A stretch of DNA of 64,000 nucleotides from Alphaproteobacteria bacterium (lineage in GTDB: Bacteria; Pseudomonadota; Alphaproteobacteria; SP197): the NCBI GenBank assembly GCA_965228895.1, contig OZ245842.1, positions 2,903,964 to 2,967,963 on the forward strand, written 5' to 3'. How positions within the stretch are numbered: position 1 is the first letter of the stretch; every line of letters begins with the position of its first letter. Under the pieces are notes generated by a model. That model was not told where the DNA came from. It saw only the letters and a program-made list of their open reading frames with translations, and made no database searches. Shown here piece after piece: positions 1,957-54,746 of this stretch. A program made the translations under genes and the position numbers.

Positions 1957-2874
1957 ATGGCCGAGATGGACTTTGAGATTCTGGATCCTTCTTTCGAACG
2001 CCTTGTGAACACGAGCGCACGGGTCGAACGGTTATGGAGCCGCGGACGGTGGACCGAAGGGCCGGCCTATTTTCCGGCATTAAGGTCACTTGTCTTTAGC
2101 GACATTCCCAACGACCAGCTGCTGCGCTGGGACGAGACGACCGGCAAGACCGGCGCGCTGGTCGCCGGTGCGGGACGTTACACCAATGGCAACACGGTCG
2201 ATCGCGAAGGCCGTCTGATCAGCTGTGAGCACGGGACCCGCCGCGTCACGCGCACCGAGCACGACGGCACCTTGACGGTGCTGGTCGATAACTTTGACGG
2301 GAAGCGCTTCAACAGCCCCAACGATGTCGTCGAGAAGTCGGACGGCTCTATCTGGTTTACCGATCCCGCCTACGGCATCGATTCGAACTACGAAGGATAT
2401 GAGGCCGATCCGGAGCTGGATGGCTGCTACGTGTTTCGTCTGGACCCGCAGTCCGGCGAGTGCCGCATCGTCGCCGACGATTTCTCACGCCCCAACGGCC
2501 TTGCCTTCTCGCCCGACGAGACGAAGCTCTTTATCGTCGACAGTGGGGGCACCACGCACGGCAAGGGCGAACGGCACATGCGCGTGTTCGACGTCGGCGA
2601 TGACGGGAACCTGTCGGGCGGCGCGGTGTTCGCGACATGCACGGCGGGCGGCTTTGACGGGTTTCGCTTCGACAACCGGGGCCGCATCTGGACGAGTGCT
2701 GAGGACGGCGTGCATTGCCTGGACAGCGACGGCAACCTGTTGGGCAAGATCCTGATACCGGAGTGCGTATCCAACGTGTGTTTCGGCGGACCCAAACGCC
2801 ACCGCCTGTTCATCACCGCGACGACATCGCTCTATTCGGTTCTGCTGCCGGCGACCGGGCTTAAGACGTTCTAG
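1957..2874 (+). CDS. SMP-30/gluconolactonase/LRE-like region family hydrolase
   Basis: 305 aa with typical SGL-family residues (NGLAFSPDE, FTDP, six-bladed propeller pattern). The stop TAG lies inside the first bases of the downstream repeat element. Confidence 0.85.
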   Translation: MAEMDFEILDPSFERLVNTSARVERLWSRGRWTEGPAYFPALRSLVFSDIPNDQLLRWDETTGKTGALVAGAGRYTNGNTVDREGRLISCEHGTRRVTRTEHDGTLTVLVDNFDGKRFNSPNDVVEKSDGSIWFTDPAYGIDSNYEGYEADPELDGCYVFRLDPQSGECRIVADDFSRPNGLAFSPDETKLFIVDSGGTTHGKGERHMRVFDVGDDGNLSGGAVFATCTAGGFDGFRFDNRGRIWTSAEDGVHCLDSDGNLLGKILIPECVSNVCFGGPKRHRLFITATTSLYSVLLPATGLKTF

Positions 2875-3007
2875 AGCAGATCCCGGTTAGGTGGAACCGT
2901 TCATCGGTTCCACCTAAACACGACCCGCTCTCTATCGATGAGTAGAGCAGATTCACCCGTCTTGACGGCATCGCGAAGCGATTCCATCAAAACGGGATCT
3001 GCTCTAG
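2871..3007. repeat. MITE-like palindromic intergenic repeat, copy A (137 bp)
   Basis: Perfect 15-bp terminal inverted repeats (ctagagcagatcccg ... cgggatctgctctag) and an internal hairpin (ggtggaaccgttcatcggttccacc). A second copy at 29972-30111 is nearly identical in reverse-complement orientation. It sits between convergent genes. Confidence 0.8.
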
Positions 3008-5758: not shown

Positions 5759-5904
5759 GGGACCGACACCGGTTTCAAGACGGGAACGGCAATCTAGGGT
5801 GTATCGGGCCAAGAAAGAAGATGCCCCCGCCACATGGCCGCCATGCGGCAGAAAAAGGGCGCCGGGATCTCGCCCGGCGCCCCAATGTCACACGACGTCG
5901 TAGA

Positions 5905-22637: not shown

Positions 22638-22690
22638 GAAAGCCTCTCTCTCCGCGCGCCGCCTTGGCGAAGCGTTAACAGGACCACGTC

Positions 22691-23944
22691 CTAGCTCAAC
22701 AGGATGTCCTCGTAGGGATAGGTCGACAGACGCTGCAGGCCGTTCTCGGTCATCAACACCTGCTCCTCGAGCTTCACGCCTTCGACGCCGTCTTCGGCGC
22801 CGATATAGCTCTCGACGCAAATCGTCATGCCGGGATCGAACGAGAACGCCGAGCTCTCGGCCGCGTTGTCACTGAACGACACGTGCGGGTATTCATCGCA
22901 CAGGCCGACGCCATGGGCCAAGACGCCGTAGCGGCGCGCGTTGAACTCGTTGGGGACCTTCCAGGACTTCTCGGCGATCTCCACGAAGCTCATGCCCGGC
23001 CTCATGATATCCATGTTGTAGTGCACCTGGTCATAGGCGTAGCGGTAGAGGCGCTTTTGCTCGTCGCTCGGCTTGCCGGGACCGCAGAACCAGGTACGGC
23101 TGATATCCGAGCAATAGCCGAACGGGCCGATCAGGTCGGTATCGAAGGCAACGAGTTCGCCGGCGCGGATGATGCGGTCGCTGCATTCGCGGAACCACGG
23201 ATTGGTCCGACCGCCCGACGCCAGCAACCGAGTCTCGATCCATTCGCCGCCGCGCGCGATGTTGACCTGATGCAGATGCGACCACAGCTCGTTTTCGGTG
23301 ATGCCGGCATGCATTTCCTCATACATCTTGGCCATGCCGGCCTCGCAGACAGAGATCGCGATGGTCATGGCGGCGATCTCGTCGGGCGACTTGATGGCGC
23401 GGGCGAGCTCCATGACCTGCTGGCCGTTGTGGATCTCGTAGCCCAGCTTCTCGATTTCTCTCGCGCCCGCCGGGTCCAAATGGTCCGCGGCGATACGTTT
23501 GTTGCCCTCGCCCATGGTCTGGCGGATCGCGTCATCCATGTCCTGGGCCCAAAGATGCGCCTTCTCCGCATAACGTTCGTCGGCGCCGAAATAGGTCCAG
23601 CCGATGCACGGGCGGATCTCGCCGATGGTCTCCAGGTGTTCGGAAAGATGCATGGAGGCCTTGTATTCGAACAGGACGGTCGGCCCCTCGGCCGGCACGA
23701 AGCAATAACGGGCCTGGTTGTGCAGGATCCAGACCTGCATGTTGCTGGAGCCGTTGGCGTAACGCACGTTGATGGGGTCATAGAGAATGACTCCGGCCAG
23801 ATCGCGCTTCTTGAGCTGCTCCTGGACGCGCGCCAGGCGATAGGCGCGCATGCGCTTGATATCGATCTGCGGTTCGGCGTCATGCTGGGCGATGCCCGGG
23901 GTGTTGCGTCCCAGGCGGATCTCATCGAGGGGTACGTCGTTCAT
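22691..23944 (-). CDS. M24-family creatinase/Xaa-Pro aminopeptidase-like hydrolase
   Basis: Start at ATG 23944. Creatinase_N-like N-terminal domain plus a pita-bread C-terminal domain with metal-ligand pattern (D..D..H..E..E-like residues). Confidence 0.85.
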   Translation of the reverse strand: MNDVPLDEIRLGRNTPGIAQHDAEPQIDIKRMRAYRLARVQEQLKKRDLAGVILYDPINVRYANGSSNMQVWILHNQARYCFVPAEGPTVLFEYKASMHLSEHLETIGEIRPCIGWTYFGADERYAEKAHLWAQDMDDAIRQTMGEGNKRIAADHLDPAGAREIEKLGYEIHNGQQVMELARAIKSPDEIAAMTIAISVCEAGMAKMYEEMHAGITENELWSHLHQVNIARGGEWIETRLLASGGRTNPWFRECSDRIIRAGELVAFDTDLIGPFGYCSDISRTWFCGPGKPSDEQKRLYRYAYDQVHYNMDIMRPGMSFVEIAEKSWKVPNEFNARRYGVLAHGVGLCDEYPHVSFSDNAAESSAFSFDPGMTICVESYIGAEDGVEGVKLEEQVLMTENGLQRLSTYPYEDILLS

Positions 23945-24035
23945 GATGGCTCCCGGCGGCGGCCAACGGTCATGTTGGCGGCGCCCATGGGAATAGCGGA
24001 CCGGCCCGGGTGTCAATCGGGAACGGCAGGTGCGG

Positions 24036-24815
24036 TCAACTTTTTTGATCGCCGGCGGAACGAACAATGCCTTCGCGCATCAGATAATCGAAGATCGCCT
24101 CGGCAGCGTCATCGGCTTCCGGGTGATCGAGAAGTTCGGCCCGCCCCTGCACCATCTGCGTCGCGGCGCGCATACGCTCGGCTGCGTTGCCCTCGCCGAC
24201 GATCTTGAGCCGGCGCGGTTTCGGTTTGGCCGGCTGCCAACGACCGTCGAGCGCATAGGGCGTGCTCTGACAGGGCGTCGCCTCGATGATACCGCGGCGC
24301 GCCTGACCGAATGCGACGGGCACCGGTTCGGGCGCGGCCGGCGACACGGTGACGATGGCATTGCGCGGCGCGCTGACCTTGCGCCGGCGCCCGCCCGGCA
24401 GTCCCTGTGCAACGTGAACGTCGCCGCCGTCGAGCGTCAGATCGGCCGCGCCCGGCACCAGCGGACGGCCCGATCGTTCGGCAAGCAGGTAAGACACCAT
24501 GCCGCTCGCCTCGCCGCTTTCGGTGCGCTCGCCCGCCAGCACGAGGGCATCAGGGCGGGCCTCCAGATAGGCGAGCAAGGGTGGCACGATGTCGTCGTCG
24601 GCCGTAACCGTCAGCACATCCATTCGCGCCACGCCCATGCCCAGGTAGTCGCGCAAGGCCGGCTCAGCATCACGACCGACATGAACGAGATCGATTGCAG
24701 CGCCGCCCACGGAACGCGCCAGCCCCACGGCACGGGCATCGAGCGATGCGCGGCGTGGTCTGCCTGACACCGGATGACGGCCCAGCGAGACCAACACGAT
24801 CACGTCGGCGGTCAT
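24036..24815 (-). CDS. etfB: Electron transfer flavoprotein beta subunit
   Basis: EtfB/FixA-like pattern (VIVLVS...D..A). Its start overlaps the stop of etfA. Confidence 0.85.
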   Translation of the reverse strand: MTADVIVLVSLGRHPVSGRPRRASLDARAVGLARSVGGAAIDLVHVGRDAEPALRDYLGMGVARMDVLTVTADDDIVPPLLAYLEARPDALVLAGERTESGEASGMVSYLLAERSGRPLVPGAADLTLDGGDVHVAQGLPGGRRRKVSAPRNAIVTVSPAAPEPVPVAFGQARRGIIEATPCQSTPYALDGRWQPAKPKPRRLKIVGEGNAAERMRAATQMVQGRAELLDHPEADDAAEAIFDYLMREGIVRSAGDQKS

Positions 24816-25966
24816 GGCTTCTCGCCCCGCGCCCGGGCCGTCAGCGCCGGCATAACAAGCTGGGCGTCTTGGATGATCGCGAGGTCGGCGCGCTTAACCA
24901 TGTCGGCATGCAGGTCGGTGTTGATGGCAACGACGCGTTCACATCGTTCGATACCCTGCAGATGCTGCGGCGCGCCGGCGATGCCGAAGGCGAGATAGCA
25001 GCGTGGTTCGACCAGCGTGCCCGACGCGCCGACCTGACGGTCGCGCGGCAACTGACCGGTGTCACAGACCACGCGGCTGCCGCCTTCGACCGCACCGAGT
25101 GCGGCCGCGACATCGTGAAACGCCGCCCAGTCGGTCACGCCGTTACCGGCGGAAACGATGAAGTCAGCTTCGGCCAGCGCGACGGCGCTCGTGTCCAGCG
25201 GCATCGGCCCGCCGTCCTCGAGCCGTGGTGAGACCGCGACCTCCGGTGCATCAAGGCGGCGCGCTTCGTGCGCCGAGCCACGATGGGGTTCGTTCGACTC
25301 AGGCGTCATCAACATGACATCGACCAATTCGCGGACGATATCGCGGCGCCCGCCATCGGCGCGGCAAACGATGCCATCCGTCTCGATGGCGTAGACACTT
25401 GCCGCGACCTTGAGACCGCGCGCGGCGGCCAGGCGCCGCGCAACGTCGCCCGCACCGACCGGCGTGTCGGGCGCCAGAACGTGACGCGGACGCAGTTGCT
25501 TGACCAACGTGACGGCGAGCGCCGCCATCCGTTCGGGCTGATAGGATGACGTTGTGTCACCGCAGGCGACGACACGGTCGGCGCCCGCCGCGCCCAGTTC
25601 ATCGTGGCTCACCGGGACAAGCGCGATGACGCCGCCGCCGTCGCGGTCCGCGAGTCCACGTGCTGCGCCCAGCACGTCACGGTCGTGCGGCGACAGGCGG
25701 CCATCGGGCATATCGGCAAGGACCAGTATCCAGAAGGCCGAATCCTCGATGACCTCAATCGGCGTTGCGGTTTGGCCCGGCGTAACCTGCCCGTGGCTTG
25801 GCGCGGTGGCGGCAATCAGTCCGCGACGCACATCGCGTTCGGCGCGGGGATCGCGGCGCACCAACCGCCCTGGTTGGTCGATAACTGGCGACGCCGGCGC
25901 TTCCGGTTGTTCGCCACGGCGCGCGTTGCGCTCGGCGCGGGGATCGCGGCGTTTGCGCGTTGTCAT
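24812..25966 (-). CDS. etfA: Electron transfer flavoprotein alpha subunit with Arg-rich N-terminal extension
   Basis: C-terminal FAD-binding region (...AFGIAGAPQHLQGIERC...VAINTD...) is EtfA/FixB-like. Start at ATG 25966 overlaps the Fe-S protein stop (ATGA). The N-terminal ~55 aa are low-complexity and contain a duplicated RRDPRAER motif. Confidence 0.8.
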   Translation of the reverse strand: MTTRKRRDPRAERNARRGEQPEAPASPVIDQPGRLVRRDPRAERDVRRGLIAATAPSHGQVTPGQTATPIEVIEDSAFWILVLADMPDGRLSPHDRDVLGAARGLADRDGGGVIALVPVSHDELGAAGADRVVACGDTTSSYQPERMAALAVTLVKQLRPRHVLAPDTPVGAGDVARRLAAARGLKVAASVYAIETDGIVCRADGGRRDIVRELVDVMLMTPESNEPHRGSAHEARRLDAPEVAVSPRLEDGGPMPLDTSAVALAEADFIVSAGNGVTDWAAFHDVAAALGAVEGGSRVVCDTGQLPRDRQVGASGTLVEPRCYLAFGIAGAPQHLQGIERCERVVAINTDLHADMVKRADLAIIQDAQLVMPALTARARGEKP

Positions 25967-27879
25967 GGCTCGACCGCCTCCAGCATCAGTTCGGCGATAT
26001 CGACGACCTGGGGCCGTGGCTCGACGACGCCTTCCAGCATCTGCATGCAGTTGGGGCATGCGACCACCACCCTCTCGGCACCGGTCTCGCGTGCCTGATC
26101 CATGCGCAGGTCCGAGATCCGCGCCTTGCCGGGGATGTCGGTGACCGGCGCGCCGCCACCTCCACCGCAGCAGAACGAGCGCAGGCCCGACCGTTCCATT
26201 TCACGTCGCTCCAGACCGAGCGCATCGATCAGATCGCGCGGCGCGTCGATCTCTCCGTTGTAGCGGCCGAGATAGCAGGGATCGTGATAGGTGACCGTGC
26301 CCTCAATCGGGTGCACGACATCAAGTCGCTTGTCGGCGGTCAAGGTCGCCAGGAGCTGCGTGTGGTGCAGCACCTCATAGTGTCCGCCAAAGTCGGGGTA
26401 TTCGTTCTTCAGGCAGTGCAGCACGTGAGGATCGGCGGTCACGATCCGTTTCACGCCCCGACTTTCCAGCGTCGCGATGTTTTCTTTGGCCAGACGCTGG
26501 AACGTCGCCTCGTCGCCCAAACGCCGCGATAGATCACCACAGTCTTTTTCGGCATCGCCGAGCACCGCGACCTCGATGCCCGCGAGGCGCAACAGCTTGA
26601 CGAGCGCGCGTAGAGTCCGCTGATTGCGCCGGTCGTACCCGCCATCGCCCAGCCACAAGAGCCAGTCGTGATCGCTGGCCTCATGCGCGATCTGAAGCGA
26701 AAGGTCGCTCGCCCAATCCAAACGCTCACTGAGCGCCCGGCCACCGGGATTGTCGGCCAAGCGTGTCTCTTCCAGCACGTCCGGTCCGTGGCCCGGCACC
26801 CTGCCCTCTTCGAGTGTGAGGAACCGGCGCAGATCGACCATGGCGTCGACATGCTCGATCATCATGGGGCATTCATAGACGCACGCCCGGCAGGTGGTGC
26901 ACGCCCAGATCGTCTGCTCGGGCACCAGGTTGCCGGCGATCAGGCCGCCGGTACCGTGCCGGCGCGCGCCGAGCGCAATGCCTGGATAAGGCTGGCCCGT
27001 ATAGGTCACGTCGTTGGCGTTGCGGCTGGTGCCGGCAATCAGGTCCTGGACGAACTTCTTGGGCGTCAATGGCTGGCCCGCGGCAAACGCCGGGCACGCC
27101 GCTTCGCACCGGCCGCACGAGACGCAGGCATCGAAGCCGAGCAACTGGTTCCACGCGAACTCACCGATCGTGCCGACACCGAGCGGGCCCTTGTCCAGGT
27201 CGAGCGGCTTGAGCGCCGCATCCGGCGCCTTGCTCCTGAAGCGCGCCTGGCGCGGATGCCATGCCAGATGCAGCGCGCCAGCGATCGCGTGCCGCATGGG
27301 GCCATAGGGCCCGAGGGCAATCAGATCGAGCAGAATCCAGATTGCGACCAGCATGCCGATAAAGATGAGGAGATCGGGCTCCCACGCCTGATAGAGGTTC
27401 GCAACGTTGACCAGACCAAAAAACACGGCAAACGCCATCAACACGAATGGCAAGACACCCCAGCGCCCCCCGGACAATCGTGCCGGACGCTGGGGCCACC
27501 TTCGTGCCAATGCCAGGAGTGCACCAACGATCATCGCGGCAAGCGCCGCCAACAGGAGGTAGCGGGTTACATGCGTCGCCAGACCCAACAAATGAACGAT
27601 GGGAATGAGAATAAGCGCCGCAACAAACCCACCGGCCACCGGCACATGCAGACGGGCGGCCTGCTTGTCGCGCGAGACAACATGGTGAACGTCAATCAGG
27701 TAGCGCGCGGGGATCCTGAGCAGACTGCCGCCGCTCGCTATGTTACGGCCACGATACCACCGTCGCGAACGCGCAAAGATGGCAAGAAGGCAACCTGCAA
27801 TGGCCACCAGGAAGAAAATGCCCGGCCAATAAAGCAAGAAGTAAAAGGCCCACACAGATCCAAACGGTGGTTCAAGCAT
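25963..27879 (-). CDS. dgcB: Membrane-anchored Fe-S oxidoreductase with 4Fe-4S and CCG domains (DgcB-like)
   Basis: N-terminal TM helices. Ferredoxin-type CxxCxxCxxxCP motifs (CVSCGRCEAACP, CTTCRACVYECP). CCG motifs (CCGGGGG..., PCY...). Context with the OYE-type partner and etfAB matches the dimethylglycine demethylase system described in Pseudomonas. Confidence 0.85.
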   Translation of the reverse strand: MLEPPFGSVWAFYFLLYWPGIFFLVAIAGCLLAIFARSRRWYRGRNIASGGSLLRIPARYLIDVHHVVSRDKQAARLHVPVAGGFVAALILIPIVHLLGLATHVTRYLLLAALAAMIVGALLALARRWPQRPARLSGGRWGVLPFVLMAFAVFFGLVNVANLYQAWEPDLLIFIGMLVAIWILLDLIALGPYGPMRHAIAGALHLAWHPRQARFRSKAPDAALKPLDLDKGPLGVGTIGEFAWNQLLGFDACVSCGRCEAACPAFAAGQPLTPKKFVQDLIAGTSRNANDVTYTGQPYPGIALGARRHGTGGLIAGNLVPEQTIWACTTCRACVYECPMMIEHVDAMVDLRRFLTLEEGRVPGHGPDVLEETRLADNPGGRALSERLDWASDLSLQIAHEASDHDWLLWLGDGGYDRRNQRTLRALVKLLRLAGIEVAVLGDAEKDCGDLSRRLGDEATFQRLAKENIATLESRGVKRIVTADPHVLHCLKNEYPDFGGHYEVLHHTQLLATLTADKRLDVVHPIEGTVTYHDPCYLGRYNGEIDAPRDLIDALGLERREMERSGLRSFCCGGGGGAPVTDIPGKARISDLRMDQARETGAERVVVACPNCMQMLEGVVEPRPQVVDIAELMLEAVEP

Positions 27880-29914
27880 CGCGCATCAAGCGTCGGGCAT
27901 CGTAAAGGGCGGCGTGGATGTTGCGCCCGGCGACACAGTCGCCGATGCGGAAGAGCTGGAATCGTCCGGCATCGTTGTTGACGATGGCCTGCGCCCGCCC
28001 CTCGATCAACGCGTCGAGGTCGACCTCGCCCAGGTTCGATGAATGGGGTTTGAGCGCGAAGTAGAGATCGTCGACCGGCAGCGTGCCGTGTTCGCCGACC
28101 ACCTGATCGACCAGGCGTTCTTCTTCCACCAAGGAGAACTCGTTGCGCAGGGTGGCGCGCAGCTTGTTGCCGTCGCGCCTGATCGCGGTAAGCCGCAGGC
28201 TGGGCGTCATGACGATGCCAAGCCGGTACATCTCCGCCAGATGCACCGAGAAGTTCGTCGAGCCCATTTCTTCGGCGACCATGCGGTCGGGCGTCGCGAG
28301 CTCCACTTGCGACCCGCGCGTTGCCATAAACTGGGCAACGCTCGGTCCCTGATGCTGGCCGTTGTCGTCGTGCAGCAGCACGTTTTCACCGGGCTCGACC
28401 GCGCCCGACAGCACATCCCAGGCCGAGACCGCGAGGTCGTTGCCGCCGAACAAGCCCTTGTTCGGACGCCCACCGGTCGCGACGACAACAAGGTCCGGCT
28501 CGTCCGCCTCGACGGCCTCGCGCGTCGCCGCCGCGCTCAGGCGCAGGTCGATCGGTTGCTTCTCAACCTGTTGGGCCAGCCAGCGGGTGATACCGGAGAG
28601 GTTCTCGCGCCACACCGCGCGCGCCGCCAGGTTGACCTGGCCGCCGAGCCGGTCGGCCTTTTCGTAGAGCACGACATCGTGGCCGCGCTCGGCCGCCGCG
28701 CGTGCCGCCTCCATGCCCGCGACCCCGCCGCCGGCGACGACGATGCGACGTTTGCCTTGGGCCCTGGGCAGTACGTGGGGCAGGCTCTGTTCGCGCCCGG
28801 TCGACGGGTTCTGGATGCACAGGGCATCGCCGCCGACGTAGATACGGTCGATGCAGTAGTTGGCGCCGACGCACTGGCGCACATCGTCAACGCGATCCTC
28901 CGACAGTTTCTTCATGAGGTGCGGGTCGGCCATGTGAGCGCGCGTCATGGCGATCATGTCGACATGGCCTTCGGCGACCGCACGATCGGCGGTTGCCAGA
29001 TCGGCGATCCGTCCGGCATGGAACACCGTGACATCGCAAGCCTGCTTGACCGCGCTGGGCAGATAGAGGAACGCCGCCGGCGGGTACGCCATGTTGGGGA
29101 TCATGACGGCCAACGCATGATGGGTTTCGGTGTTGCCGTGCATGACGTTCATAACGTCGACCAGACCGGAATCGGCGTAGCGCTTCAAAACGCCGATCAT
29201 CTCTTCCTGGGTCAACCCGCCATCGAGCAGCGAGTCGCCGGTCACGCGCAGCGAGATGATGAAGTCGTCGCCAACCGAGCGCCGGACTTCCTGCATCACC
29301 AGATGGCCAAAGCGTTCGCGGTTCTCCAAGCTGCCGCCCCATTCGTCGTCGCGCAGGTTGTTGGACGGTGTCAGGAACTGTTCGACCAGGTGGGAGGCAT
29401 CGAACATCATCTCGACGCCGTCCAGGCCGCCTTCCTTGCAGCGCGCCGCGGCCTCGCCGAACGCCTTGATGATGCGTTCGATGTCGAAGTCTTCGATCTC
29501 CTTGGCGAAGGCGCGGTGGGCGGGCTCGCGCATCTGGGTCGGCGCGACGAGCGGCAGCCAGTCGGCGGTGTCCCAGCGGTTGCGTTTTCCCATGTGGGTG
29601 ATCTGGCACATCAGCGCCGCGCCCTCGTCGTGGACCCGCCGCGAGAACTCCTGGAAAAAGGGGATGACCCGGTCCTCGCTGACCGAGATCTGGCCGAACG
29701 CCTCGGCCGAACTGTCAGGTGCGACCGAGGCCGACCCGCCGAACATGGTAAGCCCAATGCCGCCCTTGGCCTTCTCCAAATGATAGAGCTGGTATCGTTC
29801 GCCCGGCATGCCGGCATCCGCATAGGCCGGCGCATGGCTCGTGCTCATGACCCGGTTGCGGATCGTGATGTTCTTGATGGTGAGCGGTTTGAGCAGCGCC
29901 TCGAACTGTGCCAT
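27872..29914 (-). CDS. dgcA: OYE-like FMN oxidoreductase fused to FAD/NAD(P)-binding domain (DgcA-like N-methyl demethylase family)
   Basis: 680 aa. The N-terminal TIM-barrel OYE pattern and C-terminal GGGVAGMEAARAAAERGHDV Rossmann fold match the architecture of the TMADH/DgcA/N-methylproline-demethylase family. It is the first gene of a minus-strand operon. The gene symbol rests on context and is tentative. Confidence 0.85.
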   Translation of the reverse strand: MAQFEALLKPLTIKNITIRNRVMSTSHAPAYADAGMPGERYQLYHLEKAKGGIGLTMFGGSASVAPDSSAEAFGQISVSEDRVIPFFQEFSRRVHDEGAALMCQITHMGKRNRWDTADWLPLVAPTQMREPAHRAFAKEIEDFDIERIIKAFGEAAARCKEGGLDGVEMMFDASHLVEQFLTPSNNLRDDEWGGSLENRERFGHLVMQEVRRSVGDDFIISLRVTGDSLLDGGLTQEEMIGVLKRYADSGLVDVMNVMHGNTETHHALAVMIPNMAYPPAAFLYLPSAVKQACDVTVFHAGRIADLATADRAVAEGHVDMIAMTRAHMADPHLMKKLSEDRVDDVRQCVGANYCIDRIYVGGDALCIQNPSTGREQSLPHVLPRAQGKRRIVVAGGGVAGMEAARAAAERGHDVVLYEKADRLGGQVNLAARAVWRENLSGITRWLAQQVEKQPIDLRLSAAATREAVEADEPDLVVVATGGRPNKGLFGGNDLAVSAWDVLSGAVEPGENVLLHDDNGQHQGPSVAQFMATRGSQVELATPDRMVAEEMGSTNFSVHLAEMYRLGIVMTPSLRLTAIRRDGNKLRATLRNEFSLVEEERLVDQVVGEHGTLPVDDLYFALKPHSSNLGEVDLDALIEGRAQAIVNNDAGRFQLFRIGDCVAGRNIHAALYDARRLMRDA

Positions 29915-29971
29915 GGCCGGATTGTCACCGGCGTGGCGCCGAATGCAAGCGGACCTTGACGCCGGAATCGG

Positions 29972-30111
29972 CTAGAGCAGATCCGGGTTTGATGGGATCG
30001 CTTCGCGATTCCATCAAGGCAGGTGAATCTGCTCTACTCTTAGATAGAGAGCGGATTCACATGGTTAGGTGGAACCGTCTGACGGTTCCACCTAACCATG
30101 ATCCGCTCTAA
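29972..30111. repeat. MITE-like palindromic intergenic repeat, copy B (140 bp), inverted relative to copy A
   Basis: Reverse-complement alignment with 2871-3007 is nearly colinear, with the same TIR and the same ggtggaacc...ggttccacc hairpin. It lies between the divergent starts of the dgcA-like gene (29914) and the GFA gene (30145). Confidence 0.8.
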
Positions 30112-30144
30112 GGTCGAGTCGCCATCGAATTGGGGGAGGCAAAC

Positions 30145-30630
30145 ATGGTGAGCGAAGCATTCTCCGCCGAGGGCGGCTGTCTGTGCGGCGAGGTCCGCTA
30201 CCGCATGACGTCGAACCCCCTGTTCGTCCATTGCTGCCACTGCACGCGCTGCCAGCGGGGCACCGGTTCGGCGTTCGTCCTGAACGCGATGATCGAGGCC
30301 GACCGGGTCGCGCTGATGCAGGGCAGCCCCGAGGTCGTGCCCGTGACGGCGCCCAACGGCAACGTCCACAGCATCTCTCGCTGCCCGACCTGCGAGGTGG
30401 CGGTCTGGAGCACCTATTCAGGTGCCGGCGACAAGATCTATTTCGTGCGGGTCGGCACCCTGGACGAGCCCCATCGCGTGCCGCCGGACATCCACATCTT
30501 CACCTCGACCAAGCAGCCGTGGGTGCAGTTGCCCGACGACGTCCCGGTGATGGAGGAATACTACAGTGCCAAGAAGTACTGGCCTCAGGAAAGCCTGGAG
30601 CGGTTCGCGGTGCTCAAAGGAAGGGCGTGA
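30145..30630 (+). CDS. GFA-family zinc protein (second paralog)
   Basis: ATG 30145 is preceded by GGGGGAGG. Motifs CLCGEVRY...CHCTRCQ...CPTCE. Confidence 0.8.
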   Translation: MVSEAFSAEGGCLCGEVRYRMTSNPLFVHCCHCTRCQRGTGSAFVLNAMIEADRVALMQGSPEVVPVTAPNGNVHSISRCPTCEVAVWSTYSGAGDKIYFVRVGTLDEPHRVPPDIHIFTSTKQPWVQLPDDVPVMEEYYSAKKYWPQESLERFAVLKGRA

Positions 30631-30712
30631 TAGTTCACGTTGCGTGATTCCTACGCTAGTCTCCCAAAACTAATGCAACTATCAAGTTTGACGATGTTTA
30701 GGGAGGTCGTGA

Positions 30713-31084
30713 ATGGCGCTGATCAAACCCGCGCTTTTGGCCATTTGTACAGTTCTGGCCGTCTCAGGATGCGCCGGCACCGAGGGAACGCCGGTTGCGG
30801 TTAAGCAAATCCTTGAAGAGAAGTACATCGGTAAGCACGTAGATGAGGCTTTCCTCGATCTAGGGCCGGCAGACGAAAGGGAACAATTAAGTAGCGGAAA
30901 CTATCTGTACTCTTGGACCAGGCAGAGCAACAAGTACGACACCAACCTGTTTATCAAGTCCGATGAGCGTTGTTCGATCAGCATCATGGCCGACAAGGAC
31001 GGTATCGTCAGGAAGATTGGTACAGTTGACGACAGCCTGGGCGCTTGGGAGATCAGCTACTGTAAAGAGCAGTTCAGTTTGTAA
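30713..31084 (+). CDS. Small lipoprotein, hypothetical (low-GC gene)
   Basis: Lipobox LAVSGC after a signal peptide. GGGAGG SD. Local GC is clearly below the flanks. Confidence 0.6.
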   Translation: MALIKPALLAICTVLAVSGCAGTEGTPVAVKQILEEKYIGKHVDEAFLDLGPADEREQLSSGNYLYSWTRQSNKYDTNLFIKSDERCSISIMADKDGIVRKIGTVDDSLGAWEISYCKEQFSL

Positions 31085-31146
31085 AGCCATGGCACGGCGC
31101 TTGGCAGCGCGCTTTGATGCGGAAACCGAGCACCCAGTCGACCGAC

Positions 31147-31653
31147 CTACCCGTGCATTTGCAGCTTGCGGCGTCGCGCGACGCGGCGGCTTAGCAGCCA
31201 AACCAGAATGACCAAGGCAAGTAGGTTGATCGAAACCGTCGCAACCGGACCGGCGGCGCCGGCGGCGGGTGCGGATATGTCGGCGGCGGCCACCAAAGTC
31301 TCGAAGCTGAACTCGAAACCATCGCCTCTGAATCCAACACCCACATAGGGCCCGCTGATAAAGAAGAGCCAGAGAGACGCCGTTTTGACCTGCACGAGTT
31401 GCAAGACCTGATTGATCATCGATAGGACGACGCCGGAACTTTTTAGCCGCAGTAGTTGGATGCCCGCGATGATGCTGTTGAGAAACAGCACGACGAAAAG
31501 AGCAAGAATGAAAACGTTGAGGATCGGCTGTGTCGAGAGGCCGCCGACCGCCCTCAAGAGCAGAAGCAATCCGTAGGCGCCGCCCGCGATCTGGATAACG
31601 GCAATAACCAGTGCGATGGCAAAGGCTGGTCCGGTTTCCTTGGCGCTTGTCAT
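31147..31653 (-). CDS. Hypothetical membrane protein (~168 aa)
   Basis: Start at ATG 31653. Four hydrophobic segments. No recognisable family. Confidence 0.5.
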   Translation of the reverse strand: MTSAKETGPAFAIALVIAVIQIAGGAYGLLLLLRAVGGLSTQPILNVFILALFVVLFLNSIIAGIQLLRLKSSGVVLSMINQVLQLVQVKTASLWLFFISGPYVGVGFRGDGFEFSFETLVAAADISAPAAGAAGPVATVSINLLALVILVWLLSRRVARRRKLQMHG

Positions 31654-31770
31654 CTCGTCACCCCCCTGTTGCCGGCATCGGCACACGTCGACCCATCGTA
31701 GGATTGTTTCGTCGAGCGAAAAGGCAAACTTTTAGGAGACTTCCAACGCAGGCCCCTGGCCGGCGGCACC

Positions 31771-32769
31771 CTACTGCATCATCAGCGGGTGGGCGGGCGT
31801 CGAGAGCGCCATGTGCAGGAGCGAGGCGCCAAACGCCAGGACGATAAGCCCGCCGGCCAGCGCGATGACATCGACAGCGGCGCCGACGCGCTGGCCGCTC
31901 TCCGGCAGACGATCGGCGAGGCGCAGCGAAAAGCCGCGTGCGTAAACCGCCAGCACCGCGAGGATTGAGACGGTCAGCGCGGTGCCGATCGACATGGCAA
32001 GCACGGCAGCCATGCCGCTCCAGGTCAGGTTCAGGGCATAGGCCAGCAGCAGGACCAGGATCGCGCCGCTGCACGGGCGCAAACCGATCGAGACGATAAC
32101 ACCGAAACCCTTGCGCCAGGACGCGCCGCCCTTGATATCGCGGGGGTCGGGCATGTGGCTGTGACCGCAGTGATCATGCCCCTCGCCATGACCGGCCTCG
32201 CCATGATGGTGGTGGCCGTGACCACCGGAACGGCGGCGCCAGAGCCGGCGCAATGCCGACACCACCAGCACGAGACCGAGCAGCAGCACGGCGGCGTAGC
32301 TGGCTGTCTCGAAATGGCCGGCGGTTCGCTGGGCGCCACGCAGCGGCAGATCGAGCAGTGTTACCGTTACCTCGACGGCGATGATGGCGACGATGCCTTG
32401 GGTTAGGGCCGCCAGAAACGAGAGTGCCACGCCACGGCGCAGCTCGCTCTCCTGGGTCAACAGATAGGTGGCGATGACGACCTTGCCGTGACCGGGGCCG
32501 ACCGCGTGGAAAACGCCATAAAGGAAGCTCAAGCCGATCAGGCCCCAGGCCGCCCAGATTCCGTGCTCGCCGACCGCCCTTACCGCGAACGCCAGGCGGT
32601 CGTGCAGGTCGCGCTGCATGGTCTGCACCCAGCCAACCAGCTGTGACCACGGATTGTCGACGAAGGCATAGAGCAGAGCGACGAGCGCGGCCGCCACCAG
32701 CAAAGCGGCGACCGGCAACCATGCGACCGGCAGGGGCCGGCCAGTCAGTCGCAGGTTACGTGAACCCAT
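31771..32769 (-). CDS. NicO/HoxN-like nickel/cobalt transporter with His-rich loop
   Basis: Multiple TM helices and a central loop HGHHHHGEAGHGEGHDHCGHSH. It is paired with a DUF1007 gene upstream, the conserved partner of this transporter family. Confidence 0.8.
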   Translation of the reverse strand: MGSRNLRLTGRPLPVAWLPVAALLVAAALVALLYAFVDNPWSQLVGWVQTMQRDLHDRLAFAVRAVGEHGIWAAWGLIGLSFLYGVFHAVGPGHGKVVIATYLLTQESELRRGVALSFLAALTQGIVAIIAVEVTVTLLDLPLRGAQRTAGHFETASYAAVLLLGLVLVVSALRRLWRRRSGGHGHHHHGEAGHGEGHDHCGHSHMPDPRDIKGGASWRKGFGVIVSIGLRPCSGAILVLLLAYALNLTWSGMAAVLAMSIGTALTVSILAVLAVYARGFSLRLADRLPESGQRVGAAVDVIALAGGLIVLAFGASLLHMALSTPAHPLMMQ

Positions 32770-33416
32770 TCAGCGAACATCGAGCCCAAGTCTGAGGGTC
32801 CGGTCTGCGTGCGGTCGAGCGCCGACGCCAAAGCGACAGCCTCAAAGGTCGGATCGGCCGCCTCGGTCAGCGCGATGCAAGTGCCGGTTTCCCCGCCGCG
32901 CAACATCACCGGATCACCTTCCAGATGAACCATTTCGATGTAGTAACTGGGATCGTAGATCGAATAGCTGACGATTTGCGCATTCGGGTCGACCGGTTCG
33001 GCGAGCTCGACGACGAACCGCAGCCAAAGCCGCTCGTCGCGCATTTCGGTTTCGTACTCCAGGATCTCGCCGATCGCCACGGTGTCACCATCGGCGATCA
33101 TCTGCGTGAAATAGTCGTAGTCCGCCAAGCTTGTCAGATTGATCTCGGCGAGTTCGTCGAGCACCTCCTGAAGCGGCCGGTCCTCCATCGCCAGTTCTTC
33201 GGCGATCAGACCGGAATAGAAGTAATCGAAGAACCACTCCTGTTCGATCGCCGTGATCCGGCCGTCCTCATCGAACAGCAGACCACTTCTAAGATCGATC
33301 CAGGCGTGGGGGTGGGAGGTCGCGGGCTCTCCCGGCATCGCGATCAAGAGCGCCGTAAGGGCCGCCACAAGGAAACGTGGCAACGTAACGACATGCGACA
33401 GGCTGCGACGCGTCAT
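32745..33416 (-). CDS. DUF1007-family periplasmic protein (partner of NicO-type transporter)
   Basis: Start ATG 33416. Signal peptide followed by the family-signature HPHAWID motif. Overlaps the transporter gene by 25 nt. Confidence 0.8.
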   Translation of the reverse strand: MTRRSLSHVVTLPRFLVAALTALLIAMPGEPATSHPHAWIDLRSGLLFDEDGRITAIEQEWFFDYFYSGLIAEELAMEDRPLQEVLDELAEINLTSLADYDYFTQMIADGDTVAIGEILEYETEMRDERLWLRFVVELAEPVDPNAQIVSYSIYDPSYYIEMVHLEGDPVMLRGGETGTCIALTEAADPTFEAVALASALDRTQTGPSDLGSMFAEWVHVTCD

Positions 33417-33542
33417 GAACACGCAATTGTTCGAAATGATCCGATCCCCTACCAAACGCGGCCGAACTCTATCGCAAGCCAGCCATCGTTGCACATCACG
33501 TTCAGAGACCTAACCGCGGCGTGAGTCCGAAATGTGGCGGCG

Positions 33543-34058
33543 CTATGAAACGCGCCACAGCGTGACCGCCGGGCCGTCCGCGCCCATAAGCGGGTCGGAT
33601 ACCGGTAAGGCGACAGCCTCGATGCTCGCGCGGATGGCGTTCTTTTGGGGCTCGTGCTCACGCTTGATGTCGGGCGCCTGGCCCGGCGGATAGGCGCCGA
33701 CGACGGACAGACCCGGCGCATCGTCCAACCGGCGATGGCCGACGCCGGCCGGGATCACCGCCGCATCGCCCGCCTCGACATCGAACACCGGTCCTTCCGG
33801 CCCGCCGAACTGGATGCGCGCGCTACCCTTGGCGATGCCGACGACTTCGTGCGCCTCGGCGTGATAATGATGAAAGTCGAAGATGACGCCGCCGCGCCAG
33901 CCGTCGCCCCAGCCGTTCTCGCGGAAAACCGTCTCGAACGCACCGTCGGGATCGTCACCGGCGACATCGACGGCGCCCTTATAGAGAATCAGTGGCAGAC
34001 GCCCGTTGTTCGGGATGTCGCCGTCATCGGTCAGAACCTGATGGATTACTTCGGCCAT
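33543..34058 (-). CDS. Cupin-domain protein
   Basis: Start ATG 34058. Cupin-like His cluster (HHYHAEAHE). The 53-aa upstream extension was rejected. Confidence 0.65.
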   Translation of the reverse strand: MAEVIHQVLTDDGDIPNNGRLPLILYKGAVDVAGDDPDGAFETVFRENGWGDGWRGGVIFDFHHYHAEAHEVVGIAKGSARIQFGGPEGPVFDVEAGDAAVIPAGVGHRRLDDAPGLSVVGAYPPGQAPDIKREHEPQKNAIRASIEAVALPVSDPLMGADGPAVTLWRVS

Positions 34059-34265
34059 GGTGTCGCTCCTTCGCCGGTCTGTACCAAGAGCCTGAAGCCA
34101 AGCGTTTCTGCGGTCAACCGTGCACCCGGCGATCACGCGACCGGCCGTACCCCCAATGAATTCGACCGAATTCTTGCTCAGACCTGAGCCCAAATCTAAC
34201 CTATGGTGTTGCAGCAATAAAGGTTAACAACCTGGAGCCGCACCGGCGCGGTACCCGGTGAGCAC

Positions 34266-35264
34266 GTGAGCGACACACAACGAAGTTTCGGCCCTTGGGC
34301 CGGGTTGACCTTGCCGCGCCTTGTGCGGTTGCCGGCCGCGTTGGTTCTGGTCCTTGGGCTCGGCGCCTGCGCTGGCGCGATCCATCAGCTCCCACAGATC
34401 ACCGAGGCGGATGTCAATCGGGCGACCTCGGAGATTCAAAACGCCGAGGGGCTTCACGTCACCAAACGTACGGTCGCAGAGAACCGCGCCATCGTCATGC
34501 GCGTCGCGGCACGCCTGCAGCAGTCTGCCGGCGAGATTTGCCGTCACGTCGACAGTCCGACATGCCGCTTCCATGTGGTGTTCGATCCAAGCCTTGAACT
34601 CGACGCCTATGCCCACGGCGACAACCGCATCACCATCACCCAGGGCCTTGCCAGACACCTGGAAACCGAGTCCGAGTTTGCGACGGTAATCGCCCACGAG
34701 ATGGGCCATCACATGAACGATCACATAACAAAGCTGCAGGAGAACGCGGTCGCCGGCGCCCTTATCTCAGGCGTCTTGTTCGGCGTGATTGCCGTGGGCA
34801 CAGGCGCCTACGAGGTCGACCCCACCGGCACAGCGGACACCATGAACGAGGCAATGCAGTTGGGCAGTGGTCTCGGCGTGCTTTCCTATAGCAAGGAGCA
34901 TGAACGCGAAGCCGACTACATCGCAGCCTACATCATGGCTCGCGCGGGCTATGATCTGCACGACGGCCGCATGCTTTGGGCGAAGCTGACCCGCCAGTCC
35001 GAGAACTACGAAACCGGCCTCTTCGACACACACCCCTCCGGTCCCGACCGGCTGGCAGCCTGGGACGTCACGGTCATGGAGGTCGAGCGAAGTCCGGACT
35101 TGCTTCCCAACCTGATCGGCGAAACAGACGAGGTGTTATCCGCAACAACCCCGGCCGTCAGCGACGGCAGCAATGTCGTGCAAAAACAAACAAAAACATC
35201 GTCAACCACCAAGAGCGTGAATGTGGATTCGGCTGAGCGGCCATCCAAACCCGCCGCCCCCTGA
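34266..35264 (+). CDS. M48-family zinc metallopeptidase lipoprotein
   Basis: HEMGHH zinc motif with downstream E (EHEREAD). N-terminal signal plus LGLGAC lipobox. Apparent GTG start. Confidence 0.8.
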   Translation: MSDTQRSFGPWAGLTLPRLVRLPAALVLVLGLGACAGAIHQLPQITEADVNRATSEIQNAEGLHVTKRTVAENRAIVMRVAARLQQSAGEICRHVDSPTCRFHVVFDPSLELDAYAHGDNRITITQGLARHLETESEFATVIAHEMGHHMNDHITKLQENAVAGALISGVLFGVIAVGTGAYEVDPTGTADTMNEAMQLGSGLGVLSYSKEHEREADYIAAYIMARAGYDLHDGRMLWAKLTRQSENYETGLFDTHPSGPDRLAAWDVTVMEVERSPDLLPNLIGETDEVLSATTPAVSDGSNVVQKQTKTSSTTKSVNVDSAERPSKPAAP

Positions 35265-35352
35265 TTTCTGTCAATTGCTTCACCTGATCATCCGAGGCCG
35301 ATAGGATCTACGGCACGATCATACCTTCGCCCAACGGCGCTCGGGACCCCAC

Positions 35353-36438
35353 ATGAAGGACGATTTCCAACACCGTGGAGCGGGACCTGAGGATCTTGCC
35401 GACGGCTGGTCCGTCGCCGCCCCTGACGATCGCGGTATGGATGGTGCACTGCTGGCCGAAATCGCCAAGCACTTTAGGGCGTGGAGCGAGGCCAATGTCC
35501 ATGGCGTGGCGATCGCGCGTTGCGGCGCTCTGGTCTACGAGCACTACTTCACCGGCGAGGATCAGGCCTGGGGCAAACCACTGGGCCAGGTCACCTATGA
35601 CGCGTCCACACGTCACGACCTGCGTTCGATGACAAAAAGCGTCACCGGGCTTCTGGTTGGCATCGCGTTCGAACGCGGTTGGCTGAACGATATCGAGGCG
35701 CCGGTCTTTTCGTTTTTCCGGGAACACGACGATCTGAAGACGCCGGAGAAAGCGGGGATCACCCTACGCCATCTGCTCACCATGTCGCCGGGCCTGGCGT
35801 GGGACGAGAACACGCCCTATAGCGACCCCGCCAACAGCGAGCGTCAGATGTCGGTGGCGCCCGATCCCGTCCGCTACGTGCTCGAGCAGCCGCTGGTGCG
35901 CCCGCCCGGTGTCTCCTACAACTATGGTGGCGGCAACACGGCGCTTCTTGCCGCGATCCTGAAACGCGTTTCAGACAAGGCACTCGACGACCTCGCCCAA
36001 GAGGTCCTGTTCGATCCGCTCGGCATCAGCGACGTCGAGTGGATACGGTATCCGGACGGCACGCCGATCGCGGCGTCTGGCCTGCGCCTGCGCCCGCGTG
36101 ACATTGCCAAGGTTGGCCAGCTCGTGTTGGACAAGGGCCAATGGCGCGGCGAACGGGTCGTCTCGGCGGACTGGATCGAACAATCGATCACGCCACAGAT
36201 CAACGGCCAGAGTCTTTTCTTCTACGGCTACCATTGGTGGCTCGGCCGCTCGCTGGTCGACAAACGCGAGGTCACCTGGGCGTCTGCCGTCGGCTGGGGT
36301 GGCCAGCGCATGTTCGTCGTGCCAAGCCACGACCTCGTGGTCACCGTGCTGGCCGGGCTCTACGACAACATGTTCCTGCAGCCGATCCCCGGCGAGGTCG
36401 TCTTGCGGCGCTACGCGCTGGCGTCGATCCAACCGTAA
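35353..36438 (+). CDS. Serine hydrolase of the beta-lactamase/transpeptidase-like family
   Basis: S-x-x-K motif SMTKS, a later YNYGGGN-type region, and typical length (361 aa). Confidence 0.8.
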   Translation: MKDDFQHRGAGPEDLADGWSVAAPDDRGMDGALLAEIAKHFRAWSEANVHGVAIARCGALVYEHYFTGEDQAWGKPLGQVTYDASTRHDLRSMTKSVTGLLVGIAFERGWLNDIEAPVFSFFREHDDLKTPEKAGITLRHLLTMSPGLAWDENTPYSDPANSERQMSVAPDPVRYVLEQPLVRPPGVSYNYGGGNTALLAAILKRVSDKALDDLAQEVLFDPLGISDVEWIRYPDGTPIAASGLRLRPRDIAKVGQLVLDKGQWRGERVVSADWIEQSITPQINGQSLFFYGYHWWLGRSLVDKREVTWASAVGWGGQRMFVVPSHDLVVTVLAGLYDNMFLQPIPGEVVLRRYALASIQP

Positions 36439-40254: not shown

Positions 40255-40493
40255 GAATGCCTCTCCCCTGCACCGCCCGCTCTGGAGCGGTTGGTCCTGT
40301 CGTAACAAAAGCCAGGGCGCTTCACTAGCGCCCGACCGGACCCGCCATTGTCACACAGGCGACACCGACTGTGCGTGTGCCGTCATGGAGAGGCCGATTC
40401 GGCGGCGAATCCGGCAGCGAGTGGTGATTCGGCTGTCGAAACGCGGGTCAATTTGCTTGGCGATAGGATGGGCCGGGCCTTAGGGTCCCCTCC

Positions 40494-53444: not shown

Positions 53445-54746
53445 CTAACGCGCGACGCGGTCGCGGTATTGGTAATAGCGCTGCACGATCGGCAGGAACC
53501 AGGGATTGCCGTCATAGAGCGGGATGGTCGGAAAGGCCAACCCCTCGAACGCGCACTCGGCTTCCGGCGTTCCCAGGATGCGCTGTGCGGTCTTGTAGCC
53601 GAGATAGGTCTGCTTCACGACGCCCGACCCATTGCAGGCGAGCGCAAAGTGCAGGCCATCCTTGACGCCGGTATGCGGCAGCTTGTCGAAGGCGAACGCG
53701 ACGTTGCCTGTCCAGCTATGGGTGACCTTGATGTCTTTCAGTTCCGGGAACACGCCGGTCATGAAGTCGTGCAGGATTTTGCCGCTCTCGTGTGTCTCGA
53801 CATCGCGCGTCTTGGCGCGGCCGCCGAAGATGACGCGCTTCCGGTCGGGCGACGGCCGGTAGTAGTAGAGGATCTTCTTGGTGTCGGCGATCATCCGGTG
53901 ATTGGGGAACAACCGGTTCATGGTCTCGACCGGCAGTTCCTCGGTCGCGATGATGTAGCTGCCGACCGGGACCAGGCGGCGGCGGAAATTCTGCGCCGCG
54001 CGCGGCGTGTAGCCGTTGGTCATGACGGCGACCTCTTTGGCTCTGACCGTGCCGCGCGATGTCGTCACCTGGAATCCGTCGCCGTCCCGGCTGATGCGCT
54101 CGACCGGCGTGTGGGCCGCCAGCTTGACCCCGGCCGCCATCACGCGATCGAGGAACTCCTGATGGTAGACGGCCGGATGCAGACCGCCGCCCGACAACGT
54201 CACCTTGCCGCCGTGATAGATATCGGTCGCGACCTCGTTCGCCACATCGCCCTTGGCGATCATGTGGCCGGTATCGAGGCCGACTTCCTTTTTCACCAGG
54301 TCGGCGTCGCGCGCCATGGCTTCATAGTGGCTGGGGGCGTGGGCGCCGACGAAACGGCCGACCTTCTGATAGTGGCACTGCATCTGTTCGGACGCGATGA
54401 ACTCGTCGAAAAACACCATGGCGTTGTTGGCTTCGCGCACCAGGGCGGCGGCCTTGGTCTGGCCGTACTTGGCCTTCAGCTCGCTGTAGCCCAGCTTGAG
54501 CCCGCCACCAGCCATGCCGCCGCTGCGCGAGCTGGCACCGTAGCCGGGTTCGCTGGCTTCCAGGATCAGGACGTCACGCCCGGCGCGGGCCAGGTAGAGC
54601 GCGGCCGCCATGCCGGCATAGCCGGAGCCGACCACGGCCACGTCGACGGTTTCGGGCAAGGCGATCGGAACGAACTCAGGCCGGGGCGCCTCCTCCCACC
54701 AATAGGGCGTTGCCTTCCAGTCGTCGGCAAACGGGGCCTCGGCCAT
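53445..54746 (-). CDS. FAD-dependent oxidoreductase of the DAO family (D-amino acid/glycine/gamma-glutamylputrescine oxidase-like)
   Basis: Start ATG 54746. Dinucleotide fold VAVVGSGYAGMAAALYLARAG. First gene of the nine-gene minus-strand cluster. Confidence 0.85.
   Translation of the reverse strand: MAEAPFADDWKATPYWWEEAPRPEFVPIALPETVDVAVVGSGYAGMAAALYLARAGRDVLILEASEPGYGASSRSGGMAGGGLKLGYSELKAKYGQTKAAALVREANNAMVFFDEFIASEQMQCHYQKVGRFVGAHAPSHYEAMARDADLVKKEVGLDTGHMIAKGDVANEVATDIYHGGKVTLSGGGLHPAVYHQEFLDRVMAAGVKLAAHTPVERISRDGDGFQVTTSRGTVRAKEVAVMTNGYTPRAAQNFRRRLVPVGSYIIATEELPVETMNRLFPNHRMIADTKKILYYYRPSPDRKRVIFGGRAKTRDVETHESGKILHDFMTGVFPELKDIKVTHSWTGNVAFAFDKLPHTGVKDGLHFALACNGSGVVKQTYLGYKTAQRILGTPEAECAFEGLAFPTIPLYDGNPWFLPIVQRYYQYRDRVAR

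Follow-up and report, generated by a model that had tools for sequence, protein, structure and literature searches.

The short intergenic repeats closest in description to the one studied here are the CcrM-associated intergenic repeats (CIR; Chen and Shapiro 2003, summarised in PMC2229807) of Caulobacter, also described from Brucella and further Alphaproteobacteria, the RUP elements of Streptococcus pneumoniae, which are TA-duplicating MITEs (miniature transposable elements with inverted repeats) mobilised by IS630-family transposases (PMC2229807), and the Correia/NEMIS elements of Neisseria. Insertion sequences (IS) of the IS630 family insert into and duplicate a target TA (PMC2170065), and a 1991 paper cited in that article names in its title an IS630 preference for the TA in CTAG. 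IS711 of Brucella (IS5 family, IS427 group) duplicates TA at YTAR (PMC3163539). MITEs near promoters can change expression (PMC10969869); for Correia elements the effects described involve internal promoters, an integration host factor (IHF) site that lies downstream of the mtrCDE promoter, and hairpin RNA that RNase III processes (PMC2229807, PMC10969869). Here a 64,000-nt stretch of alphaproteobacterial DNA (contig OZ245842.1; the window) was analysed around a 140-nt repeat, copy B, which lies at 29972-30111 in the spacer between a dgcA-like gene and a divergent gene of the GFA family. Copy B was a recent, lineage-specific MITE insertion, shared, among the compared loci, only by the window genome and one strain whose DgcA is 97% identical.

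The family of copy B resembled the CIRs, as far as these are described in the summary cited above, in its alphaproteobacterial host, its length (~110-140 bp), its strictly non-coding and intergenic nature, its two long inverted repeats forming two arms with a linker, and the TA at its termini. A conserved GANTC (CcrM) site stood at or near the hairpin loop, as GGAATC in the loop of the first hairpin (H1) in Reyranella-type and Sinorhizobium fredii relatives, and the 106-bp element of S. fredii pNGR234b fits the CIR description given there. The window family differed in its clear 11-bp terminal inverted repeats (TIRs), with each arm bounded by TAGAGC...GCTCTA, whereas CIRs are tabulated without TIRs (PMC2229807). 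A target duplication was demonstrated for the window family and is not known for CIRs from that summary; likewise, one frame was open through the window element, whereas CIRs are said there to have stops in all six. Because of its true TIRs, the window family is CIR-like and not a CIR member, the comparison with CIR1-4 being one of descriptions and not of sequences.

RUP elements are also small and non-coding, with short TIRs, many intergenic copies and a duplicated TA (PMC2229807). They form, however, a single AT-rich stem from end to end, whereas the window family is a GC-rich two-hairpin heterodimer with GANTC sites, and no cognate IS was found for it in the host-genome loci searched. IS711 follows the identical target rule in an alphaproteobacterial host, and Bru-RS1 is a ~103-bp palindromic intergenic repeat; but IS711 is an 842-bp autonomous IS, and Bru-RS1, compared by description, is reported to be a hot spot for its insertion and not a derivative of it. 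Correia/NEMIS elements share TA termini with duplication, a length of 100-155 bp and a frequent position beside genes. They differ in their one long end-to-end stem, 24-26-bp TIRs, AT-rich sequence and beta-proteobacterial hosts, and in having recognisable sigma-70 promoters and IHF sites, neither of which was found in the window element (the IHF consensus WATCAANNNNTTR was looked for by eye). The REP/BIME/REPIN sequences are likewise intergenic palindromic units, often at gene 3' ends, with correlated changes that keep their hairpins and with modular assembly. However, REPs are 20-40 nt units with a conserved GTAG-type head and links to RAYT genes, and they leave the target unduplicated, none of which holds for the window family; membership of that class was ruled out by the CTAGAGC ends and the TA duplication.

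The closest DgcA homologues (90% cluster) were used to compare the locus with orthologous sites lacking the element, as the earlier note had proposed. The strain with 97% DgcA identity (L093) carried an identical copy at the same locus. The GFA-dgcA spacer was element-free and only 91-97 nt long in six lineages, on eight contigs, of 88-95% DgcA identity (L098, which is PL23b_bin.48, L099 and L100, 95%; L095/L096, 94%; L101, 91%; L094/L097, 88%), and a single CTAG marked the exact insertion point. This short spacer is the sole DNA available for both promoters, bearing out the claim that the repeat is embedded in a divergent promoter region. In L098, L099 and L100 both flanks aligned base for base with the window; the empty site read GGC-TA-GGGTCGAGTCGCC and the window junction GGC-TA-(GAGC...134 nt...GCTC)-TA-AGGTCGAGTCGCC, showing that the element proper is 29975-30108 and that the TA was duplicated. 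A pyrimidine preceded the left TA in 32 of 34 copies and a purine followed the right TA in 33 of 34, indicating that the target is YTAR with duplication of TA.

PL23b_bin.48 was empty at the dgcA-GFA locus, yet carried 16 family copies elsewhere. At a second polymorphic locus its filled junction (GCTC-TA-GGGTCC) faced an empty site in the window (CC-T-TA-GGGTCC), and the right junction agreed with TA duplication. Presence/absence polymorphism between the two genomes thus ran both ways, and the site empty in the window and filled in PL23b_bin.48 (40480-40483) shows that the family was active after these lineages split.

Copy B was built of two palindromic units, H1 and H2, which resembled diverged copies of one ~65-nt unit (GATGGAATCGC vs GGTGGAACCGY). 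H1 (29973-30036) read TAGAGCAGATCC...GGTGAATCTGCTCTA; the core stem of H2 was also present in related families of Reyranella and other metagenome-assembled genomes (MAGs). The 11-bp TIRs TAGAGCAGATC and TAGAGCGGATC agreed at 10 of 11 positions, the same count as for TAGAGCAGATC against GATCCGCTCTA read in reverse complement. The single-strand fold of the element reached -92.6 kcal/mol (z = -11.5), a stability equalled by none of 200 shuffles, and the other strand folded equally stably. Stops interrupted five of the six frames, and the remaining frame was open only as far as the terminal TAG. Shuffles gave an expectation of zero chance matches for diagnostic 20-29-mers of the repeat. With 134 nt of non-coding sequence, TIRs, a target duplication at empty and filled sites, and many copies with unrelated flanks, the element had the features of a bacterial MITE, so that this label, which the earlier note had used, holds if taken broadly to mean any inverted-repeat element that is mobile and non-coding. 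The same note had called copy B a second copy, and copy A was confirmed at 2871-3007 on the opposite strand, 84% identical to copy B over 139 nt. It filled the entire gap between two convergent genes, a SMP-30/gluconolactonase-like gene (1957-2874, +) and a Sel1-repeat gene (stop 3014).

Table 1. Window coordinates of copy B and its parts, copy A, the second polymorphic site and the flanking genes. SD, Shine-Dalgarno sequence.
Feature	Position	Strand	Evidence or remark
Copy B, element proper, 134 nt, H1 then H2	29975..30108	+	Missing from six related lineages with both flanks aligned; matches 33 full-length copies at 72-93.5% with unrelated flanks
Left copy of duplicated target TA	29973..29974	.	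Context C-TA-G = YTAR; empty vs filled sites
Right copy of duplicated target TA	30109..30110	.	With 30111-30114 reads TAAGGT (TAnnnT hexamer on the GFA side), where empty sites have TAGGGT
Hairpin 1 (H1), 64-nt palindromic unit TAGAGCAGATC...GAATCTGCTCTA	29973..30036	+	Fold; stem covariation in 34 copies; GANTC at 30007 and 30025
Linker CTCTTAGA, 8 nt, joining H1 and H2	30037..30044	+	Alignment of 34 copies
Hairpin 2 (H2), 66-nt palindromic unit TAGAGAGCGGATTCAC...GATCCGCTCTA	30045..30110	+	Core stem AGGTGGAACCG/CGGTTCCACCT; GANTC at 30054
Copy A, same element	2871..3007	-	84% identical to copy B; terminal TAG 2872-2874 is the stop of gene 1957-2874
Empty TTAG (YTAR) site	40480..40483	.	Filled in PL23b_bin.48 by an H1-deleted family copy (orthologous position L014:7913-7987)
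Candidate dgcA promoter outside the element	29921..29948	-	-35 TTGCAT (29943-29948), 16-nt spacer, -10 GACAAT (29921-29926)
dgcA-like gene, OYE/FMN + FAD/NAD domains, first of dgc cluster	27872..29914	-	ATG = 29912-29914
GFA gene with SD GGGGGAGG (30132-30139)	30132..30630	+	ATG 30145; Pfam GFA match 5e-31

One genome per GTDB species was scanned for the H2 core stem, which gave 92 loci, and these were followed by blast and alignment. Full-length copies (~140 nt) numbered 35. The window had two, and the other 33 came from a pair of alphaproteobacterial MAGs, 14 from 'Alphaproteobacteria bacterium PL23b_bin.48' (identity to copy B 83-93.5%) and 19 from 'Kiloniellaceae bacterium SMAG_U7452' (72-78%). 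Every full-length copy had the same sharp ends, (C)TAGAGCAGATC...GATCCG(C/A)TCTA(G), with unrelated flanks, and the order and spacing of H1 and H2 were fixed across the family. Derivatives with internal H1 deletions, solo H1, solo H2 and one flipped H1 were also found; internal-deletion and solo derivatives are typical of decaying MITEs and support a MITE family. In PL23b_bin.48 two direct copies (L029:5413-5549 and L029:6442-6581) bracketed one ABC-2 permease gene (5594-6436, -), one of them 5 nt from the most upstream possible start of that gene; the pair may reflect insertion between cistrons or form a composite-like arrangement.

A related ~150-nt family, with CTAGAGC/GCTCTAG ends, GGAATC in the H1 loop and the same H2 core, was present in Reyranella and other alphaproteobacterial MAGs, and loci of related two-hairpin families (L004, L007, L011, L012, L020, L021 and others) came from Reyranella, Rhodospirillales and other MAGs. 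Replicons of Sinorhizobium, Martelella and Nitratireductor carried a 106-bp element that agreed with the Reyranella-type relatives in its ends and its H1 loop; the one on S. fredii pNGR234b (L102, 2316095-2316200) read CTAGAGCAT..CAGGTGGAATCACCTG..GCGCTCTAG. The related families shared the CTAGAGC/GCTCTAG ends and a GGTGGAATCACC loop containing GANTC, which suggests a class-wide superfamily of two-hairpin repeats in Alphaproteobacteria. By name, the family hosts were Alphaproteobacteria, Kiloniellaceae, Reyranella and Rhodospirillales MAGs. Rfam held no family for the element at gathering or E-value thresholds, only noise-level matches to miRNA-type hairpins. No match for the window's subfamily was obtained by blastn against 72,556 plasmids (E<=1e-5 and E<=10), the scan of viral contigs gave none, and megablast of 8 kb around the locus returned trivial matches only.

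The terminal TAG of the element served as the stop codon of a flanking open reading frame (ORF) in 21 of 35 copies, and eight of nine such ORFs tested were real proteins with Pfam domains reaching their C-termini. The two ends of the element abutted stop codons at similar frequency (8 sense, 11 antisense). This association followed from the target rule, because the element begins with G and restores TAG at any TAA or TAG stop that it enters; selection against insertions elsewhere adds to it. YTAR sites were nevertheless scarce in the window, with its 63% GC: 84 lay outside the elements, 13 of them at stop codons. Only about 5 of 35 copies lay between two gene starts, which makes the location of copy B atypical for its family.

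Across 34 copies the hairpins were maintained, with 97.6% of cells paired and 16 of 44 pairs changed on both sides, a result equalled in none of 500 shuffles, and the loops varied freely while the stems were kept. A strand bias in stem mismatches (G-U vs A-C, 25 vs 10) was set aside, as 10 of the 25 fell in one column and perhaps go back to one inherited event. Each copy had one to four GANTC sites, mostly two to four, against 1.84 per kb in the window, and these were conserved at columns 24, 54 and 84 in 28-30 of 34 copies. A recurrent 3-nt indel at alignment columns 53-55 and 86-88 (window 30024-30026 and 30057-30059; TGA in the H1 3' arm, TCA in the H2 5' arm) switched two sites between GANTC and GATC, leaving a 3-nt bulge in the hairpin.

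The dgcA-like start at 29914 (-) was common to full-length homologues. The candidate promoter pair TTGCAT/GACAAT lay wholly inside the 57 nt between element and start codon and was kept with or without the element. The A of the dgcA ATG (29914) was the seventh nucleotide after the -10, with 6 nt between GACAAT and ATG, and no SD preceded this ATG, whereas GFA has a strong one (GGGGGAGG). In eight aligned sequences CTTGCATTCG (which contains TTGCAT), GACAAT, the 16-nt spacing and the 6-nt distance to the ATG were invariant; the sequence of the spacer varied. Leaderless mRNAs are common in Alphaproteobacteria, and this arrangement suggests that the dgc operon most likely retains its own leaderless promoter, with transcription starting at the ATG. 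The element had inserted at about -59, which is 24 bp upstream of the -35; sequence beyond that point would be displaced by 136 bp, with the core promoter left intact. Of the three fates that had been proposed for the native promoter (displaced, supplied by the element or interrupted), displacement thus stands for the sequence upstream of about -59. Supply by the element gained no support, and interruption is unlikely for dgc with the invariant pair outside the element. Two other candidate signals were rejected. A sigma-54 or extracytoplasmic-function-type motif, TGGCGC-N5-ATGCA in the relative with 88% DgcA identity, was shifted by 2 nt in the window when compared by eye, and a 6-bp dyad, GACCTT...AAGGTC, across the insertion point in the reconstructed ancestor kept only 4-5 of 6 positions in relatives and was put down to chance.

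On the GFA side, 33 nt of native DNA remained before the ATG, and the insertion lay 35 nt upstream of it. The target TA was part of TAGGGT in empty sites and of TAAGGT in the window, the sole TAnnnT hexamer at a suitable distance from the GFA SD; its role as a -10 is putative, and no convincing -35 for GFA could be assigned in any compared lineage. With its start 35 bp from the insertion, GFA is more likely than the dgc operon to be the gene affected. Its promoter may have been split at the -10-like TAGGGT, the right-hand TA then rebuilding a TAAGGT whose upstream DNA is foreign, or it may lie further upstream, in which case the GFA mRNA leader would now hold a very stable double hairpin.

The GFA gene was intact and conserved in the element-bearing lineage. 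In both element-bearing genomes an AAG-to-ATG change (window 30145-30150) placed a new GFA start one codon upstream of the ancestral GTG (30148), which all element-free relatives use, and the distance from SD to start went from 8 to 5 nt; this gain may be compensatory or coincidental. Between the window and the 97% strain GFA differed at a single synonymous site, in a tract too nearly identical to be informative on relaxed selection. Divergence from L093 was mosaic over window 21872-35903, with 0-2 mismatches per 250 nt over 29500-32000, 10-25 in dgcA (27750-29250) and ~50 at 34000-34500, and the synonymous divergence (dS) was 0.17 for dgcA and 0.009 for GFA. These blocks look like recombination tracts, whose borders did not fall at the element.

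Taken jointly, the observations are best explained, and we think probably so, by a recent insertion of a non-autonomous, non-coding, two-hairpin CIR-like MITE that left the dgc operon its core promoter and hit the GFA side. The element would have entered the TA of a CTAG mid-way in a ~94-bp spacer holding both divergent control regions, moved in trans by a TA-duplicating DDE transposase, presumably of the IS630 family or the IS5/IS427 group; it bears the transposition footprint of such elements, as do RUP and Correia. Native signals would still drive the dgc operon, minus whatever lay upstream of about -59, and judged from its sequence the element is, most likely, selfish DNA carried along without a regulatory function of its own. 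Several points weigh against this explanation. Neither a transposase with matching ends nor a TA-flanked inverted-repeat pair of 600-3000 bp was found in ~750 kb of host-genome loci (element termini that paired at distances above 200 nt, considered as parent-IS candidates, belonged to neighbouring MITE copies). The dgcA promoter pair is weak against the consensus, matching at 3 of 6 and 4 of 6 positions, and draws its support from conservation among close relatives; the 40-nt promoter block was 68% identical between the window and the 88% relative, not above coding sequence, although at this distance the half of the spacer nearer GFA could no longer be aligned. Compensatory upkeep of the hairpins and the conserved GANTC sites also exceed what a cut-and-paste DDE transposase needs, a hint of a constraint related to structure or methylation. 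Part of this pattern would be expected if the element were REP/REPIN-like and an HUH enzyme (RAYT or IS200/IS605-type) moved it as single-stranded DNA, recognising hairpins and not terminal repeats: compensatory substitutions maintained both hairpins between and within subfamilies, loops varied with stems kept, and the units were modular (solo H1, solo H2, one flipped H1). HUH elements, however, make no target duplication and insert beside an asymmetric tetra- or pentanucleotide, whereas the precisely aligned empty sites revealed a symmetric TA duplication at a palindromic YTAR. The ends were true inverted repeats with no conserved GTAG-type head, and the even use of both ends at stop codons also speaks against such an enzyme, making this route very improbable. 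The double hairpin might instead be a native cis-regulatory structure of the dgc/GFA locus (operator, attenuator, riboswitch or small RNA gene), given its very stable, conserved fold in a regulatory spacer. That idea has next to no probability, being in practice refuted by the same spacer without the element in six related lineages; in addition, more than 30 unrelated loci carry the element, mostly at gene 3' ends, and it has no Rfam family and no terminator-like U tract.

The element could also act in the manner of Correia, with outward -35/-10 motifs in its ends driving GFA, contributing to dgcA, or both. Internal promoters are documented for Correia and other MITEs (PMC10969869), the 33 nt between the element and the GFA ATG are too short for a full promoter and leader, the right junction creates TAAGGT, and several family copies lay 3-80 nt from predicted gene starts. 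However, a standard scan of 29700-30400 returned no sigma-70-like site and no terminator-like site (no U tract followed the GC-rich hairpin), and a relaxed scan gave four promoter sites against 3.1 expected by chance, among which TTGCAT/GACAAT alone fitted a gene and none faced outward from the element; the outward motifs that the earlier note had suggested looking for were thus absent from both scans. The sequences TTCCAC and GTTCCA, 16-18 nt upstream of TAAGGT, matched TTGACA at 2-3 of 6 positions, gene 5' ends were faced by H2 in 14 cases and by H1 in 11, showing no preference, and most copies sat at gene 3' ends. Promoter supply by the element is therefore unlikely. The hairpin upkeep and the GANTC sites would fit a family that is a host-tolerated or co-opted methylation-site hairpin cassette and not a purely selfish MITE, with a function of these sites and hairpins at the DNA or RNA level, a reading to which we give a low probability. 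If it were true, candidate roles would be 3'-end protection or attenuation working in both directions at stop codons, or methylation- or GcrA-dependent control. Copy B would then put GFA and the dgc upstream region under cell-cycle or methylation-dependent control, and the AAG-to-ATG gain in GFA would have arisen to compensate for the insertion.

For the locus itself, all coordinates of the earlier note were verified: a repeat at 29972-30111 taking 140 of the 230 nt of the dgcA-GFA spacer, between gene starts at 29914 (-) and 30145 (+), 57 nt from the first and 33 nt from the second. Domain searches also agreed with the gene families it had named, which are OYE/FMN+FAD DgcA-like, DUF3483+CCG DgcB-like, EtfA, EtfB, M24/creatinase-like, DAO+GCV_T DMGDH-like and GFA. 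The description of a six-gene operon held in part. Overlaps of 4-8 nt joined the first four genes (dgcA, dgcB, etfA, etfB) only; M24 and DMGDH followed after gaps of ~92 and ~54 nt, respectively. In the 88% relative (L094/L097) an HpcH/HpaI aldolase gene on the opposite strand separated etfB from M24, so that the six-gene arrangement is not conserved there. In the same relative dgcB was called as two ORFs of 288 and 200 aa (L094:8438-9961, L097:5438-6961).

Elsewhere the window held a second dgcA paralogue (50862-52901, -), ~67% identical to the first in nucleotide sequence, which came after a GNAT-like ORF without a spacer or repeat. A Rieske oxygenase, a DAO oxidase, an MttB homologue and further GFA-like motifs were also present, and the window looks like a quaternary-amine catabolic island. 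The Rfam model PYLIS_3 matched 55988-56087 (+) at 38.1 bits (gathering 38), inside an uninterrupted ORF of the MttB family (54710-56488, +; Pfam MTTB 2e-231). This ORF is a non-pyrrolysine MttB homologue, in which the PYLIS_3 match probably reflects coding similarity and not a PYLIS element.

A MITE landing in a promoter region is ordinary and not surprising in itself. For this organism it means that the upstream spacer of a dimethylglycine/betaine-catabolism cluster is mostly foreign DNA, and its promoters and operators should be predicted from the native 57 nt and 33 nt. The family is apparently an undescribed relative of the poorly understood CIR repeats, forming a new subfamily in uncultured Alphaproteobacteria. 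Beyond the reviews of 2007 and 2024, the locus adds precise empty and filled sites, the TA/YTAR rule, the association with stop codons and recent mobility for a repeat class of the CIR type, and the question of how such repeats move becomes testable.

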